Positions 7,770-18,765 are shown, numbered from the stretch's first letter. The stretch is DNA of 64,000 bases from Shigella phage SFPB (OQ031072), one strand, 5' to 3'. Translations and numbers: made by a program. The notes: generated from the letters alone by a model not told the origin.

Positions 7770-10530
<2,761 letters not shown>

Positions 10531-10531
<1 letters not shown>

Positions 10532-12418: not shown

Positions 12419-13276
12419 ATGTTTAAAAAGATTGAAAACTTTTATGAGAAAACATTGGACGAAAGAACTGTAACTCAATTCAAAGATAAGTTTATTTACA
12501 CAAGTCTATTGAAATCTATCACAGATGAGTTACAATTATTAGAGGATATCAGTAATCAGTTATATACTGAAAGAAATATTCGTGTAGGTGTTGGCACACA
12601 ACTTGATAACATCGGGGCTTTGATTAAAGTCCCTAGACCTATTGGTGCTGATGATGACACTTACAGAGCTATCCTCTACATTCAAATTTTCTTAAGACGT
12701 TCTGACACCACACCAAACTTCTTACAAAGGGCTGTTATGACCCTTTACAACGCATCATTCAGTCAGATTTTTGAGCACATTACGCCAATGACTGGTGGAA
12801 TTGTTATCCGTGTAAACACTCGAAATAACGTGTTAGATACAGCATACACACTTTCTAAGATTGCTGCAACAACTATTGGTTCAGCAGTTATCCTTAGAGA
12901 TGTTACCTTAAATGGTACTGCTTGGACTCCTGTAGAGGTTGCTGATTCATCTCTGGCAATTACTGATGAGAATAACAACTGGTTTGTAACAAACACTAAC
13001 AAGGGTCTTATTACGAACAACACAGGTGGCTCTCTAGAAGCAAATAAATTAGGTAGTTTTGCAGATGCAGGTGTAAGAGATGGTTATGTAAGAGTGGATA
13101 AAACTGGTGGAAGTACCAGTAAAGATTATTTAAAAGTCAGCAAAACAAACAATAGCAACGACTATTTCATTGCTGGTAAAGAAACAGTAGCAGGTGGTGA
13201 TTATGGGATTATGGCAGAAGTCGCCCAAATCGTCAAAGGCAGAAAAGATAAATCTCAACAAGAAGGAAGTTCATAA
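12419..13276 (+). CDS. putative baseplate/tail-fibre attachment protein; start trimmed to SD-preceded ATG
   Basis: AAGGAG SD then ATG at 12419; in frame with track ORF 12380..13276. Confidence 0.45.
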
Positions 13277-13590
13277 TGTCTCTTTCATGGTCTACAGACA
13301 CAGTTGATGCTGATGGTAACCAGCTTAAAGTTTTACCACCTCCAGAAATTCAAGCCACTGGCCTATTAAGAGGTGAACCTATGGGTCGTCAGTGGTTTAA
13401 CTATATTATCAACTATTTGCTTAACAAAGTAAATGGTACGGTTGGAGAGGTTCGTTCATTTGCTACGGAGCAACCTGATTTAGTTTCCAATGGTTGGGAA
13501 TTAATTGACACAGTAACAGGAACTGCACACACCAGCACGACTAACCTTTACACATATGAATATAAAGGAGCTAATAATGGCAGTCGGTGA
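13276..13590 (+). CDS. hypothetical structural protein
   Basis: 104-aa coupled ORF. Confidence 0.4.
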
Positions 13591-14752
13591 AATTCAAATT
13601 AGTGCATTGCCTCAAGCCTCGTTGCCTATTGATTTAAGTGATATCTTTCACCTTAAGCAAGGTATTGAGGATAAACGATGCACACTTGAGCAATTACTTG
13701 CTCCACACGCATCTTTAAGAAATAACCCACACGGCGTTACAAAGGTTCACGTAGAACTTGGTAATGTTATTAACGCGCTCCAATTAGTGGCTGCTAATAA
13801 CTTGTCAGACGTGGTTAGTGTTGAAGAGGCTAGACAGAACCTTAATATTCTATCAAGTGATGAAGTTAATGCCCTTATTCAAAATCACATTAATGACAAG
13901 AATAACCCTCACAACACTAACAAGATTCAAGTAGGTTTGTCTAATATTCAAAACTGGACATATTCAAACTCTTACTCTGAAGATGCTGATAAGTATGCTA
14001 CTGCAAAAGCTGTGAATGCTTTATATAGAGCTATCCAGAATAGCTATCCAATTGGTACTATTCATTTGTCAGTTAACCCTGCAAACCCATCTACATATTT
14101 ACTTTGTGGTGGTACTTGGGAGTTAGTTTCTAAAGGAAGGTCTCTTGTCGGTTATGACACAGATACAAGACCTGTAGAATCAGTATTTGGTTCTGCTACT
14201 GTAACACTTACACAAAATAACATTCCAAGTCACACACACTCTGTGTTGTTAACTGGTGGTGGACACTCCCATAATGCAACAGTAGTAATTTCTAGCTTTG
14301 ACTATGGGACTAAGAGCACATCAAGTTTTGATTATGGTTCTAAGGCCACAAACGACTCTGGAAGCCACGCTCATAATGTTAATGGTTCTGTAAGCAGTGC
14401 TGGTAGTCACAGCCACAGGATTCCATTGAGGGGTTCTGACAGGGGTGGTGTAAACGCTATTACGGCAACGGCTGATGCAGGTGTTGGTAATGCGTCATAT
14501 ACAGACTTTGATGGGGTTCACACACATACCTTCAACGTTAACTCTTCAGTTGGTGGTAACCACTCTCACAGTGTGTATATCGGAGCACATGGACACAGCG
14601 TTGCAATTGGTTCACATGGACACTCAGGTACTGTGACAGTTCAATCTTCTGAGCACACTCACTCAGGTACAACTGGTGCATTTGGTGCTGGACAAGCATT
14701 TAATATTGAGCAACCTTCTTATGTTGTATATGTTTGGAAGAGAACTGCGTAA
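13577..14752 (+). CDS. tail fibre protein with NPH-type fibre repeats, collar-like domain and His-rich (HxH) C-terminal region
   Basis: Repeats ...[16 protein letters not shown]... / ...[16 protein letters not shown]...; collar-like [15 protein letters not shown]...WEL; many H-x-H motifs; C-terminal VWKRTA. Confidence 0.65.
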
Positions 14753-14762
14753 TTATTTATAA

Positions 14763-14778
14763 GGGGCTACACAGCCCC
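14763..14778 (+). other. intergenic GGGGCT-N4-AGCCCC hairpin without U-tract
   Basis: perfect 6-bp stem, ACAC loop, between the two fibre genes. Confidence 0.4.
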
Positions 14779-14796
14779 TAGAAAGAGGATTTATAA

Positions 14797-17175
14797 ATGG
14801 CTGAATATAAGCTAAGTGAGCTAAACAGTATTGATACAGTTCGCTCAGAAGATTTACTTCACCTAAGAATTATCAAAAGGTCTGATATGCTAGGTGATGA
14901 AGACCGTAAAATGACCTATGCAAATTTCCTTGCCTCTTTCAAACTAGAAAGATTCTTACAACTAACTGGTGGGGATATGACAGGGAATCTTGGCATCGTC
15001 AAATTAAGATACGGTGGAAAAGACTTATTAGACCCAACAGGTTCTTCTGAGGTTATTCTCGGTGACACTGCCAAGACCTTTAGAATTAATGCGAGTGCTT
15101 TAAGATTAACTGTAAACGATGCCACAAGGTCTGCAACAGTTTATCACACACTTAATAAACCATCTCCTAATGAATTAGGTATGAGAACTAATACTGAAAA
15201 TGATGCAAGATATGCTATGAAGGAAACTGAAAATACTTTCTTGGCAAGACAAATCATTAATATCAACGGTGTTGGTCTAACACTTAAAAGTGTCTTACCA
15301 GATGGTGGAGCATATATTGAAGCAAGAGATTCAAATAATGCTTTGAGATTCACAGTTGGTAACTTGACTTCTGGTACTGATGTTACATTAGTTAATAGTA
15401 AGGGTGCTACGTTGACTCTTGGCACAAACTCTGTTAGTGTTGATAAGAATTTTGAAATCAATGGGCAGGTCCAGCCTAATAACTGGAATAACCTTGATGC
15501 AAGATTCTTTACACAGACTGCTGCTGACCAGAGATTTGCAAGACTTAATGCAAGTAATCACTTTGTTGGTGTTAATAACTTCAATGGTAAGACTTATGTT
15601 ATTGCAGATAGTAATGCACTTAACTTAAGAGCGACTACAGAGAATGCTGCATTGTTTATGCGTGGTTATAACAGTGCTGGGACAGGAACTTGGTATGTAG
15701 GTCAACCAGATGGTACGCAGTCTGAGATTGTTTTAGCAAACCAGATGACAAATGTTAACTTGAAAATTGCTACAGAGTTTTCATTTAACAAAGCTATCAA
15801 TGTAACTGGTCAGGTGAAACCAAGTGACTTTTCTAACTTTGATACAAGATATGTTCCAAGCTCTTTAACGAACGTTCTTGCAAGAACTAATGCTGCAAAC
15901 GTTTTTACTAACCCACAAACTATTGTTACTACAGATGCGGCTTTCACATTGCAAAGTGGGACAGCTAATTCACCACTGTATATTGTTGGTGCTAATGCAG
16001 ACGGAAACAGACGTTGGTATGTTGGTAACGGTGAAGGTAGTAGACCAAATTCTCTATTTCTATACAACTACTCAAGCGGTGGTGTACAGTTAGAAATTGC
16101 TGATACTTTCATGTTCAATAGAAGCGTATTAGTAACTGGTCAGGTTCAGCCTACAGATTGGACAAACTTTGATACAAGATACTACACACAATCTGCTGCA
16201 AACTCAAGGTATATGCTATCTGGTGTATCTGGAACGGGAACCGAAGTTGGTGATGCAACAGGTATTGCTTGGAATGCAAAAACAGGTTTGTACAGTGTTA
16301 CAAATTCAACTGGTGGGTCTACTCACTTAGTTTACCAAATGTACCTTGGAGTTGGCGCATCTACACCAACTGCACAGTTTAAATTTAACTACAAGAATAC
16401 TGGAATCTATTATAGAACAGCAAGGGATGAGTTTGGTTTTGAAGAGGCTTGGGCTAAAATCTACACCGACAAAGACAAACCTACACCCTCTGAACTTGGT
16501 GCTTACACCAAGGCTGAAGTGGACCAACGTATTGCTTCCGCTGTAACTGATGCTACAGACCTTAAGAAAGTGTATCCGGTTGGTATTGTGACGTTCTTTG
16601 CTTCTAATGTCAACCCAAATACAGCTTTCCCAGGCACTACTTGGACTTACTTAACTGAGGGTGCAAACAGAACTATTAGGATTGGTTCTGAAAATGGTTC
16701 TGATGTGAAGGGTCTTGGTGGTGCTGATACGGTTGCATTAAGTGTTGGTCATATCCCTGCACACACTCACGGCTTCTCTGGAACAACTTCTTGGTTTGAC
16801 TATGGAACTAAGTACACAGATGGTCAGGGTGCTCACGACCATGACAGAGGTAATATGGAAATCTCTGGTAACTTTGGATGGTTTAGAAGTGATAATAACT
16901 CGTTCTACGTTGCAGACGGTGCTTTTGCAATGAGTGGTAGCCAAGGTGGGCATAGCTGGACAGGTTCTAACTTCACTTATGGTGCGCCAGTTAACTTCTA
17001 TGCTTCCAGAACTTGGACAGGTAGAACTAGTTGGGTAGGTGCTCATGCTCACGGTGTAGGTATTGGTGGACACAACCACACATTCAGTGGTAACACTGGG
17101 GCAACTGGTTCTGGTGCAGCATTCAGTGTTCTTAACACTTACATTAAACTAATGGCTTGGGTAAGAACTGCATAA
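14797..17175 (+). CDS. long tail fibre protein with three internal ~150-aa repeats and a collar/His-rich C-terminal domain paralogous to 13577..14752
   Basis: Motif (V/I)xGQVxPxxWxNxDxR(Y/F)xTQ(S/T)AA occurs three times; C-terminal HxH motifs; ends AWVRTA like the upstream fibre. Confidence 0.65.
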   Translation: MAEYKLSELNSIDTVRSEDLLHLRIIKRSDMLGDEDRKMTYANFLASFKLERFLQLTGGDMTGNLGIVKLRYGGKDLLDPTGSSEVILGDTAKTFRINASALRLTVNDATRSATVYHTLNKPSPNELGMRTNTENDARYAMKETENTFLARQIININGVGLTLKSVLPDGGAYIEARDSNNALRFTVGNLTSGTDVTLVNSKGATLTLGTNSVSVDKNFEINGQVQPNNWNNLDARFFTQTAADQRFARLNASNHFVGVNNFNGKTYVIADSNALNLRATTENAALFMRGYNSAGTGTWYVGQPDGTQSEIVLANQMTNVNLKIATEFSFNKAINVTGQVKPSDFSNFDTRYVPSSLTNVLARTNAANVFTNPQTIVTTDAAFTLQSGTANSPLYIVGANADGNRRWYVGNGEGSRPNSLFLYNYSSGGVQLEIADTFMFNRSVLVTGQVQPTDWTNFDTRYYTQSAANSRYMLSGVSGTGTEVGDATGIAWNAKTGLYSVTNSTGGSTHLVYQMYLGVGASTPTAQFKFNYKNTGIYYRTARDEFGFEEAWAKIYTDKDKPTPSELGAYTKAEVDQRIASAVTDATDLKKVYPVGIVTFFASNVNPNTAFPGTTWTYLTEGANRTIRIGSENGSDVKGLGGADTVALSVGHIPAHTHGFSGTTSWFDYGTKYTDGQGAHDHDRGNMEISGNFGWFRSDNNSFYVADGAFAMSGSQGGHSWTGSNFTYGAPVNFYASRTWTGRTSWVGAHAHGVGIGGHNHTFSGNTGATGSGAAFSVLNTYIKLMAWVRTA

Positions 17176-17261: not shown

Positions 17262-17456
17262 ATGCCAACCATTCTAGCAATCCTCTTGAAAAATCTTGGG
17301 GCATTCTTCTGGAAGCTTCTACTTTCTCTTCTTAGCGAATACATGATTGAAAAAGTGTTCTTCAAGCTTGCAAGATACCTTGCGAGTAAAACAGACACAC
17401 CTATTGATGATGAATTTGTAGATACCTTGGAAAAGGCTTTTAAGGGTGAAAAATAA
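17262..17456 (+). CDS. small hydrophobic protein (possible membrane/lysis-associated)
   Basis: 64 aa, N-terminal hydrophobic segment. Confidence 0.4.
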   Translation: MPTILAILLKNLGAFFWKLLLSLLSEYMIEKVFFKLARYLASKTDTPIDDEFVDTLEKAFKGEK

Positions 17457-17830
17457 TGAAGTGGATTGAAGATGCTTTTAAGAACAATATTGGTGCAATC
17501 GTTGTAGGTATTTTCAGTGTAATTGGTATGTACACTACAATGCAGGTCTCTGATGGTAAACAGGAAGTGTCTATCACAAATAAGTTACAGCAGTTGGATG
17601 GTTACTCAAAAGGTAACTATTCAGCTATTCGTGACTTACAATCTGATATGAAGCTCCTACAATTAGGGATGGAGAACCAGAAAGTTCAGCTAGAGAATGT
17701 TAAGGGAGAAAACGCTAAGTTGACTAAGACCCTTGATAAGTTCTCTGACAGTGTTAACAACTTAGCACAATCTGTATCAGCTTTGCAAGCAATTACAGAA
17801 CAAAATACCCAAAGCACTAAAAAGAAATAA
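17456..17830 (+). CDS. N-terminal transmembrane plus coiled-coil protein (holin/antiholin- or spanin-like topology)
   Basis: TM segment IGAIVVGIFSVIGMYTTM followed by heptad-rich region; located after the tail fibre genes. Confidence 0.4.
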   Translation: MKWIEDAFKNNIGAIVVGIFSVIGMYTTMQVSDGKQEVSITNKLQQLDGYSKGNYSAIRDLQSDMKLLQLGMENQKVQLENVKGENAKLTKTLDKFSDSVNNLAQSVSALQAITEQNTQSTKKK

Positions 17831-17834
17831 TTCT

Positions 17835-17862
17835 AAGGCTCCTTTTTACGGGAGCCTTTTTT
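17835..17862. terminator. bidirectional rho-independent terminator between convergent gene blocks
   Basis: AAGGCTCC-N8-GGAGCCTT stem flanked by T-run; plus and minus operons converge here. Confidence 0.6.
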
Positions 17863-17866
17863 GTTT

Positions 17867-18765
17867 CTACTTACCTACTGATAAAGGTGCTTCAATCTTA
17901 CCAGCATGTTTATACCCTTTCAACCCACCTAGAAAGTCATCTGCTGTCATATGTCTCAAGTCTTCAAGAGACTTCAAATCTTGATGAATTTCAAACTTAG
18001 GTGCTGGAAACTCTTCATTACCAAGAAGTTGAAAAACCTGCGACATATGGTTCTGGTATATTTGAGTATCACCATAAGTCCCTATCAGATATCGCGGTGT
18101 ATATCCCGTCAGTTTACACAACACTTCCAAGATAAAGGCATAGGAAGCGATGTTAAACGGTAACCCTAAGAACGTATCACAAGAACGCTGATACCATTTT
18201 AAATCCACCTCATTAGTGTTCGAGATATAAATCTGAAAAAGTACATGACAAGGTGCTAATGCCATAGAGTTACTTGAGATATCTGCTGCATTCCATGCGT
18301 TAACGAGCATGTAACGGTCTGTAGGGGACTTTCTCATCTTCTCTACAAGATTACTCAACTGGTCTACAACAACACCACCATGACCTTCGTAGGCTCTCCA
18401 TTGGACTCCGTAGATTCTTCCTCCAGCGTCCTCCAGCCAATCATTCTCTGTAGCATAGGTTGTTTTCAACCAACGTTTAAAATCATCTGTCCAGATAGTC
18501 CAACGCTCTCCGTCGTTCTCCCCCAAGTTCTGTAACGCAAATGGCCTAGTTGGTTTTCACCGTTCATAAACCATAATGCTTCACCGAGGACTTGACGCAT
18601 AAATGTTTGTTTTGAGGTGATTAATGGGAATCCACTACGCATATCAAAACGGAACTCAGGTGGAGCAAAGGTCGAAATCACTGAGCCAGTTCGGGTTTTA
18701 CGCAACTCACCAACTGATAAAACATGGTTTAAAATAGCTTTGTAGCTTACATCTGCTTGTGACAT
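17867..18765 (-). CDS. thyA: thymidylate synthase, frame interrupted (N-terminal ORF 18466..18765, C-terminal ORF 17867..18526); apparent 1-nt deficit at the G5/C5 run 18520-18524
   Basis: N-terminal part has RTGxG...FPLITSK...LWF; C-terminal part has ...WNAADISSNSMALAPCH...FQ..Y and LGLPFNIASYA; the two ORFs are in different frames. Confidence 0.85.

Follow-up and report, generated by a model that had tools for sequence, protein, structure and literature searches.

In a 64,000-nucleotide (nt) stretch of DNA from Shigella phage SFPB (OQ031072; hereafter the window, with positions counted from its first letter), two tail fibre genes follow one another on the plus strand at 13577-17175. They encode proteins of 391 and 792 amino acids (aa), as had been proposed from inspection of the DNA by itself (the sequence-only reading). 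Taken as a whole, the evidence is best explained by two trimeric Mooglevirus baseplate fibres, each ending in a receptor-binding tip of the T4 gp37 type, and we regard this explanation as very probable. The tips of the two proteins are homologous to each other, the His-x-His (HxH) motifs of the shorter fibre align with all those of the T4 tip, and the motif histidines are conserved among relatives on either side of a variable middle segment.

The phage was assigned to Mooglevirus (Ounavirinae; Felix-O1-like myophages) by a megablast search with a 4.5-kb query around the fibre genes. Shigella phage Henu11 was 97.6% identical to this query, Sf14, Sf16 and others were ~96% identical, and 20 records covered at least 80% of it. 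The two genes are orthologous to the short and long fibre pair of the Ounavirinae and stand in the same gene order as in Sf14. The short fibre corresponds to Sf14 gp52 (FDI99_gp105; 99.5% identical) and is the counterpart of the short tail fibre (STF) of phage Bas63. The long fibre corresponds to Sf14 gp53 (FDI99_gp104; 95.6% identical), and its sequence is that of the tail fibre annotated in Shigella phage SFPB (P0240; 100% identity).

The C-terminal tips of the two fibres

The short fibre gene and its tip comprise the following features. Residue numbers of the short fibre refer to a 398-aa frame that begins at 13556, an alternative in-frame ATG without a Shine-Dalgarno sequence; the start at 13577 is considered correct because AAGGAG lies 7 nt upstream of it and the same 391-aa product is annotated in relatives.

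13577-14752, plus strand: short tail fibre gene, 391 aa (open reading frame (ORF); phrog_2097 tail fibre, E=9e-132)
14006-14230, plus strand: collar (aa 151-225), of the T4 gp10 C-terminal/gp37 collar type
14231-14416, plus strand: descending needle strand (aa 226-287), with HxH at 226, 237, 271 and 285
14417-14518, plus strand: head (aa 288-321), a hypervariable distal loop region
14519-14749, plus strand: ascending needle, with HxH at 322, 336, 345, 354 and 367, then the C-terminal strand to the collar and the WKRTA end

Residues 153-370 of the short fibre aligned to the structure of the T4 gp37 tip (2XGF) with E=4e-25, and with E=1e-30 when a family profile was used. The alignment to 2XGF has 41% identical residues as a whole, with 63% across the needle and 21% across the head. 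All seven HxH motifs of T4 aligned with an HxH of the short fibre, and two extra motifs (226 and 367) flank the collar. Because of the 2XGF match and the seven aligned motifs, the analogy with T4 amounts to direct homology for the short tip. The nine motifs compare with a mean of 1.5 in shuffled sequences, none of 5000 shuffles reaching nine. The collar matched Pfam PF21939 Gp10_C (63.5 bits) and the C-terminal domain of T4 gp10 (2FKK, E=6e-7), and in the descending needle the motif SSFDYG(T/S)K is duplicated.

The long fibre gene and its tip are laid out as follows.

14797-17175, plus strand: long tail fibre gene, 792 aa (ORF; phrog_4277 matched end to end)
16558-16761, plus strand: collar (aa 588-655), Gp10_C, with nearly invariant columns
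16762-16851, plus strand: short descending needle (aa 656-685), with HxH at 656 and 680, the histidines kept in 118 of 119 homologues
16852-17037, plus strand: head (aa 686-747; 62 aa), rich in Trp, Phe and Tyr, with 3-15% identity and many gaps among 119 tip homologues
17038-17172, plus strand: ascending needle and C-terminal collar strand, with HxH at 750 and 759 and the WVRTA end

The long fibre has four HxH motifs (656, 680, 750 and 759; mean of 0.24 in shuffled sequences, with 2 of 5000 shuffles reaching four), so that the dense HxH run claimed for both fibres describes the short one better. The four fall on T4 motifs 1, 2, 6 and 7, which makes the long tip a reduced version of the T4 arrangement. 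With four motifs only, the needle is shorter, and the 62-aa aromatic segment takes the place of the distal needle and head. This four-HxH form occurs in 104 of 120 long-fibre orthologues; another 13 of the 120, including that of Citrobacter phage Michonne, have a six-HxH form with a head of ~33 aa. The short fibre of Michonne diverges chiefly in the distal needle and head (~30% identity).

The two tips are homologous (short 160-398 to long 589-792; 28% identity, E=7e-16), and the similarity is confined to the C-terminal ~205-240 aa. The N-terminal regions show no significant sequence similarity (z=1.2) and have only an EDKRCT/EDRKMT-like motif in common. The shared terminal W(K/V)RTA is present as proposed, the short protein ending in ...YVWKRTA and the long in ...MAWVRTA. 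A recent duplication of the tip in situ was considered and rejected, the short tip being 41% identical to T4 gp37 (63% in the needle) and 28% identical to the long tip. Outside the Ounavirinae, the closest relatives of the long tip are prophage fibres (40-48% identical).

A collar-like segment had been proposed for both fibres, and Gp10_C was indeed found in each (63.5 bits in the short fibre and 27.5 bits in the long, against a cut-off of 27). These matches extend over 236 (short) and 202 (long) residues for a model of 139 positions, so each collar domain must contain a large insertion. The profile could be matched end to end only with ~100 (short) or 65 (long) extra residues in its middle. 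Together with the end of the profile at the C-terminus, these extra residues fit an excursion of needle and head that leaves the collar and returns to it.

The histidines on which the sequence-only reading hinged are conserved among relatives. In 64 short-fibre homologues, some of which are just 29-33% identical overall, the HxH histidines are 92% conserved, compared to 45% for the non-histidine residues of the same region. In the long tip, the eight HxH histidines are kept in 111-118 of 119 homologues; for the ascending needle the count is 111, as it is for W788. In both sets of homologues the two histidines of each motif are conserved as a pair. Within these sets, conservation is lowest in each tip where the descending HxH run gives way to the ascending one, and for the short fibre identity over residues 288-320 is 11-21% across the 64 homologues compared to at least 45% in the flanks. 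A conserved needle with a variable middle is the pattern expected of a scaffold that bears a variable receptor-binding head, and the head of the short fibre is presumed to be a receptor-contact surface. The long head varies less when full-length orthologues from the Ounavirinae are compared (median identity 56%).

Shafts and module exchange among relatives

The shaft of the short fibre is a single feature.

13715-13960, plus strand: shaft with two NNPH..K..V.L.N motifs, found by motif search and mostly helical in the AlphaFold2 (AF2) model

The two NPH motifs stand at residues 57 and 117, and their histidines are kept in 63 and 58 of 64 orthologues, respectively. The motifs are real, as in the sequence-only reading, which had described NPH-type fibre repeats in this fibre. 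No Pfam repeat family accompanies them: residues 40-155 did not match PF03406 Phage_fiber_2 even at an E-value of up to 10, so the term describes what the eye sees and does not assign the motifs to a family. T4 gp12 was rejected as a relative of the short fibre, since no gp12 chain appeared among its PDB matches at E-values of up to 1, whether a single sequence or the profile served as query.

The long fibre is built, in order, of an N-terminal attachment region, three linker-knob repeats, a Mu-like knob, the collar, the short needle, the large head and the return strand. The features upstream of its tip are these.

14797-15150, plus strand: N-terminal baseplate-binding region (aa 1-118), among the most conserved modules (median identity 71%)
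15151-16155, plus strand: three tandem linker-plus-knob repeats (R1, aa 119-228; R2, aa 229-343; R3, aa 344-453)
16225-16557, plus strand: fourth knob (aa 477-587), Pfam PF12604 gp37_C (63.5 bits, E=2e-17)

The baseplate-binding role of the N-terminus is taken from the work on Bas63 (PMC12609058) and Sf14 (PMC11821841). Three repeats of ~150 aa had been proposed; there are three, each carrying Pfam PF20744 gp37_trimer, and their length is 110-115 aa. R2 and R3 are the most similar pair (z=20.5; R1-R2, z=5.4; R1-R3, z=4.9). The gp37_trimer family scored 153 bits in total over three stretches of the fibre, and the single repeats scored 31.8, 37.3 and 42.3 bits (cut-off 21.7; E from 1e-7 to 8e-11). 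Every repeat ends in GQVxP..(W/F).N.D.R(Y/F), which recovers most of the motif GQVxPxxWxNxDxRYxTQSAA that had been ascribed to each copy; its last part, YxTQSAA, is distinct in the first and third copies only. The fourth knob is homologous to a distal domain of the phage Mu fibre S/S'. Residues 477-582 matched Mu fibre 8JU3 with E=6e-21 by sequence and with E=2e-5 and a probability of 1.00 by Foldseek.

Among close relatives, exchange is concentrated in the shaft of the long fibre. The short fibre is at least 99.5% identical in Sf14, KMM4 and ESh19. The long fibre of KMM4 is 95-100% identical save at residues ~461-560; in this stretch a longer module, unrelated to gp37_C, has taken the place of that knob (61-73% identity at the nucleotide level). 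That of ESh19 is nearly identical save at ~376-455, the R3 knob (nucleotide identity, 51-65%). The breakpoints lie in conserved linkers, directly after ...GQVQPTDWTNFD, directly after ...NAANVFT and directly before KPTPSELGAY. Between near-identical phages (>95%), cassette swaps of the host-range type hit single shaft knobs of the long fibre and not the tips.

In 92 more distant orthologues, median identities were 71% for the N-terminus, 33%, 26% and 33% for the three knobs, 68% for the gp37_C knob, 68% for the collar, 56% for the head and 73% for the return strand. One distant protein (P0350) has knobs that are ~30% identical and a head that is 97% identical, which indicates that tips are exchanged too. 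Compared to Sf14, the long fibre differs mostly at head residues 701-720 (60% identity).

The alternative knob of ~137 aa that stands in place of gp37_C in KMM4 (L002, 3706-4143) is also present in P0267, the long fibres being otherwise 94-100% identical, and it recurs mid-protein in several unrelated PHROG fibre families. No relative of this module was found by sequence in Pfam or among solved structures in the PDB.

Proposed architecture and receptor use

In the architecture that we propose, each chain would leave a gp10/gp12-like collar, run down a β-needle to a small distal head, return up the needle and re-enter the collar, where it would end in W(K/V)RTA. At each HxH motif the three chains together would provide six histidines, which would form a single octahedral site for metal along the three-fold axis (occupied by Fe2+ in T4), and the stacked sites would rivet the six-stranded needle. 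The short fibre would hold up to nine sites, the seven of T4 and two beside the collar. The long fibre would hold four, hence its shorter needle with a larger, aromatic-rich head. That both tips would be stabilised by metal is well supported by homology, and the premise that HxH motifs coordinate metal in T4 agrees with the Bas63 paper, which states that the seven HxH motifs of the T4 needle coordinate Fe ions (PMC12609058).

The hypervariable heads would be the likeliest receptor-contact surfaces, and the core of lipopolysaccharide (LPS) the likely receptor, as in other Ounavirinae. LPS-core dependence has been reported for Bas63, and in a Henu12-resistant Shigella mutant with a waaH insertion phage adsorption was lost, which suggests dependence on the LPS core. 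Since the heads bear no relation to each other, the two fibres most likely bind different structures, and it is plausible that the pair serves as a dual-receptor device or host-range cassette. In the long shaft, conserved linkers separate the four knobs, and they are the places at which whole knobs are exchanged between near-identical phages.

Several observations weigh against gp37-type tips with receptor-binding heads. The long-fibre Gp10_C score of 27.5 bits lies at the threshold, and the long tip matches 2XGF only weakly on its own (E=4e-4), its link to T4 running through the short fibre (E=7e-16). The AF2 monomer models were mediocre, with a predicted local distance difference test (pLDDT) score of 66.9 for the short fibre and 61.8 for residues 460-792 of the long. 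The collars and the Mu-like knob were well formed (pLDDT of 80-90 in the short collar), and both heads fell below 50. Foldseek searches of the PDB with these models did not return 2XGF itself. The best match of the short fibre had E=8e-3, with a cyanophage fibre, T4 gp10 and Bizionia C24 at E from 8e-3 to 0.1, and the fold searches overall also gave R2 pyocin and phage fibres, weakly; these and the Mu fibre are relatives of the kind expected. Since the models and Foldseek did not confirm it, support for the needle topology comes from sequence homology and the literature. The Sf14 paper treats HxH and iron for the spike gp47 only, and we found no experimental evidence of metal binding for these fibres. 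Finally, the median identity of the long head (56%) compared to that of the knobs (26-33%) suggests that the long-fibre tip is perhaps not the main determinant of specificity.

This last point leads to a possible, although unlikely, alternative in which the long fibre would owe its specificity mainly to lateral binding through the shaft knobs, with the histidine-containing tip chiefly a structural cap. The knobs are the most divergent modules, they are swapped cleanly and singly in KMM4 (gp37_C) and ESh19 (R3) with the rest 95-100% identical, and the gp37_C knob is homologous to a distal domain of Mu S/S'; the authors of the Sf14 study also suggest receptor contacts proximal to the tip (PMC11821841). 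However, divergence on the surface of a shaft could equally reflect relaxed constraint, the tip is exchanged as well (P0350), and the head holds the main difference from Sf14.

A second alternative, which we likewise consider doubtful, concerns the division of labour between the fibres. The long fibre would bind first and reversibly, and the short fibre would then act like gp12 as an irreversible lock on the same LPS, so that the pair would not be a dual host-range device. The authors of the Bas63 study labelled the shorter fibre STF (PMC12609058), both fibres are attached to the baseplate in a subfamily that depends on the LPS core, and the short fibre is nearly constant (99.5%) where long fibres swap modules, as expected if it bound a conserved secondary receptor. 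On the other hand, both fibres of Sf14 and Bas63 lie along the sheath in a retracted position, as long fibres do, instead of being folded beneath the baseplate (PMC11821841, PMC12609058), and the short fibre lacks a sequence match to T4 gp12 and carries a gp37-like tip with a head that is hypervariable in distant relatives.

Extending the idea of lateral binding, one may speculate, at rather long odds, that the long fibre is a string of adhesin cassettes, each exchangeable independently of the others and comprising the three gp37_trimer knobs, the Mu-S-like knob and the reduced tip, with the (K/Q)P..(W/F).N(F/L)D.R(Y/F) linkers as recombination junctions, that Mooglevirus host range is tuned mainly by the knobs and not by the tip, and that the tip with four HxH motifs and a big head represents a form of the gp37 tip not described before. 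Least convincing is the notion that the histidines are conserved without metal, for β-strand packing, hydrogen bonding or pH sensing: the loss of three of the seven T4 sites from the long tip does indicate that individual sites are dispensable, but this notion is very improbable given that all seven Fe-ligand motifs of T4 align with HxH in a needle that is 63% identical, that both histidines of each motif are conserved as a pair, and that HxH-iron is accepted for the P2 and Mu spikes and has been proposed for those of Sf14 and Bas63 (PMC11821841, PMC12609058).

For the two trimeric fibres with gp37-type tips, the practical value is modest. Which strains of Shigella, E. coli and Citrobacter are open to attack by a therapeutic Mooglevirus depends on these fibres, and the module boundaries and natural single-knob swaps at linkers provide ready-made junctions for engineering host range. 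Both the two-fibre architecture and the occurrence of gp37-type HxH tips on each of the Ounavirinae fibres had already been published in 2025 (PMC12609058, PMC11821841), for phages that are 96-100% identical (Sf14, SFPB) or belong to the sister genus (Bas63). The present analysis adds no new biological principle; its small increments are that the sites were counted (9 and 4) and aligned, that a common tip variant with four HxH motifs and a large aromatic head was recognised, and that knob swaps between near-identical phages were located at linkers.

Neighbouring genes and comparison with known systems

The gene order around the fibres is the same as in Sf14: wedge J, wedge 1, platform, short fibre, long fibre, a small ORF and a putative holin. 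The wider order also matches, with tape measure, hub, spike and wedge proteins followed by a small ORF and two genes annotated 'tail fiber protein'. As in Sf14, the small ORF and putative holin 3' of the fibres are followed by a divergently transcribed thymidylate synthase gene. One feature adjoins the fibre genes on their 5' side.

13276-13590, plus strand: 104-aa ORF directly 5' of the fibres (phrog_4141, function unknown), in the same position in Sf14

Gene order suggests that this ORF is the positional equivalent of the platform protein of the long tail fibre (LTF) in Bas63 ('LTF platform', gp25) and of Sf14 gp51, the platform role having been described for those proteins (PMC12609058, PMC11821841). 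It overlaps the start of the short fibre gene by 14 nt (13577-13590), as it does in KMM4; the counterparts in Sf14, ESh19 and Michonne are shorter by five codons and show no overlap. Between the fibre genes, the 44-nt spacer contains a GC-rich hairpin of 7 bp (14762-14779, plus strand; AGGGGCT-ACAC-AGCCCCT) that is not followed by a run of T, and this hairpin could act as an element of transcript stability or attenuation and so set how much of each fibre is made relative to the other. The central baseplate spike (213 aa; 9890-10531, plus strand) has HTH at His194/His196 near its C-terminus, and the same HxH iron-binding motif has been reported for Sf14 gp47 (PMC11821841) and for the Bas63 spike (PMC12609058).

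On the 3' side of the fibres, at 17262-17830 (plus strand), lie two small membrane-type ORFs of 64 and 124 aa. The 64-aa ORF (phrog_402) has a hydrophobic N-terminus. The 124-aa ORF has an apparent N-terminal hydrophobic segment and weak coiled-coil-type Pfam matches; it is annotated 'putative holin' in Sf14, where its counterpart is marked 'Yes' in the protein table (PMC11821841). A strong bidirectional terminator hairpin at 17835-17858 ends the late operon. Beyond it, thyA (minus strand, ~17867-18765) is split into ORFs of 99 and 219 aa by a 1-nt deletion relative to Sf14 at ~18520 (window TTGGGG-GAGAAC, Sf14 TTGGGGAGAGAAC), which may be either a sequencing error or a genuine frameshift or pseudogene. 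Folding of the T4 gp37 tip needs the chaperones gp57A and gp38. In the three small neighbouring ORFs (104, 64 and 124 aa), the only ones scanned, no chaperone family was found with Pfam or PHROGs, and the same resources gave no Mu U-type assembly protein among the adjacent genes.

The closest known system is Sf14, for which cryo-electron microscopy equated the 391- and 792-aa proteins with virion fibres of 430 Å and 630 Å (Commun Biol 2025, PMC11821841). The Sf14 fibres lie retracted along the sheath, and the authors propose that they have different receptors. That study describes 'C24-like' and 'gp10 C-like' domains in gp52 and likens gp53 to T7 gp17C and Mu gp49, whereas we assign gp37-type needles.

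Bas63 (JohannRWettstein; Felixounavirus) provides the same type of tip in both its STF gp26 and its LTF gp27 (Sci Adv 2025, PMC12609058). In that phage the tips consist of a collar, an HxH needle and a small head, with the chain doubling back, and the LTF contains repeated β-helix domains joined by helix-turn linkers, with unexpectedly low conservation of these repeat domains. Of the structural proteins compared between Bas63 and Sf14, the tail fibres have the lowest identity (~52%; PMC12609058). Bas63 is reported to have seven HxH motifs in the STF and six in the LTF, compared to nine and four in the short and long fibres of the window. Its LTF has five repeat domains, whereas the window's long fibre has three gp37_trimer repeats and one gp37_C knob, together with a larger aromatic head and a shorter needle.

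In Mu S/S' the homologue of the fourth knob is a distal domain, whereas here it is an internal knob, replaceable in KMM4, that is followed by a 205-aa tip of collar, needle and head. Prophage fibres of Erwiniaceae, Photorhabdus and Xenorhabdus, annotated 'phage baseplate protein / Gp10_C', are 40-48% identical to the collar and needle of the long fibre and share its invariant HxH positions and a WxRxA end. They differ in being ~300 aa long, without gp37_trimer or gp37_C knobs, and in having usually 5-9 HxH motifs and other heads. In the two prophage loci examined, Mixta mediterraneensis (L006, 6001-6939) and Izhakiella capsodis (L007, 6001-6909), the fibre is the last gene and ends a Baseplate_J-Wedge1 module, as in the window. 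Neither fibre is followed by a fibre-assembly chaperone gene, and in Mixta an acyltransferase gene adjoins it.

The C-terminal domain of T4 gp10 resembles both collars, but gp10 is a baseplate wedge protein without the HxH needle-head excursion. T4 gp37 (785-1026; 2XGF) shares seven HxH motifs, the FDYGTK motif and the collar with the short fibre, and the heads of both window fibres are unrelated to its head. In T4 this tip ends a kinked fibre made of four proteins, whereas in the window it ends fibres made of a single protein.

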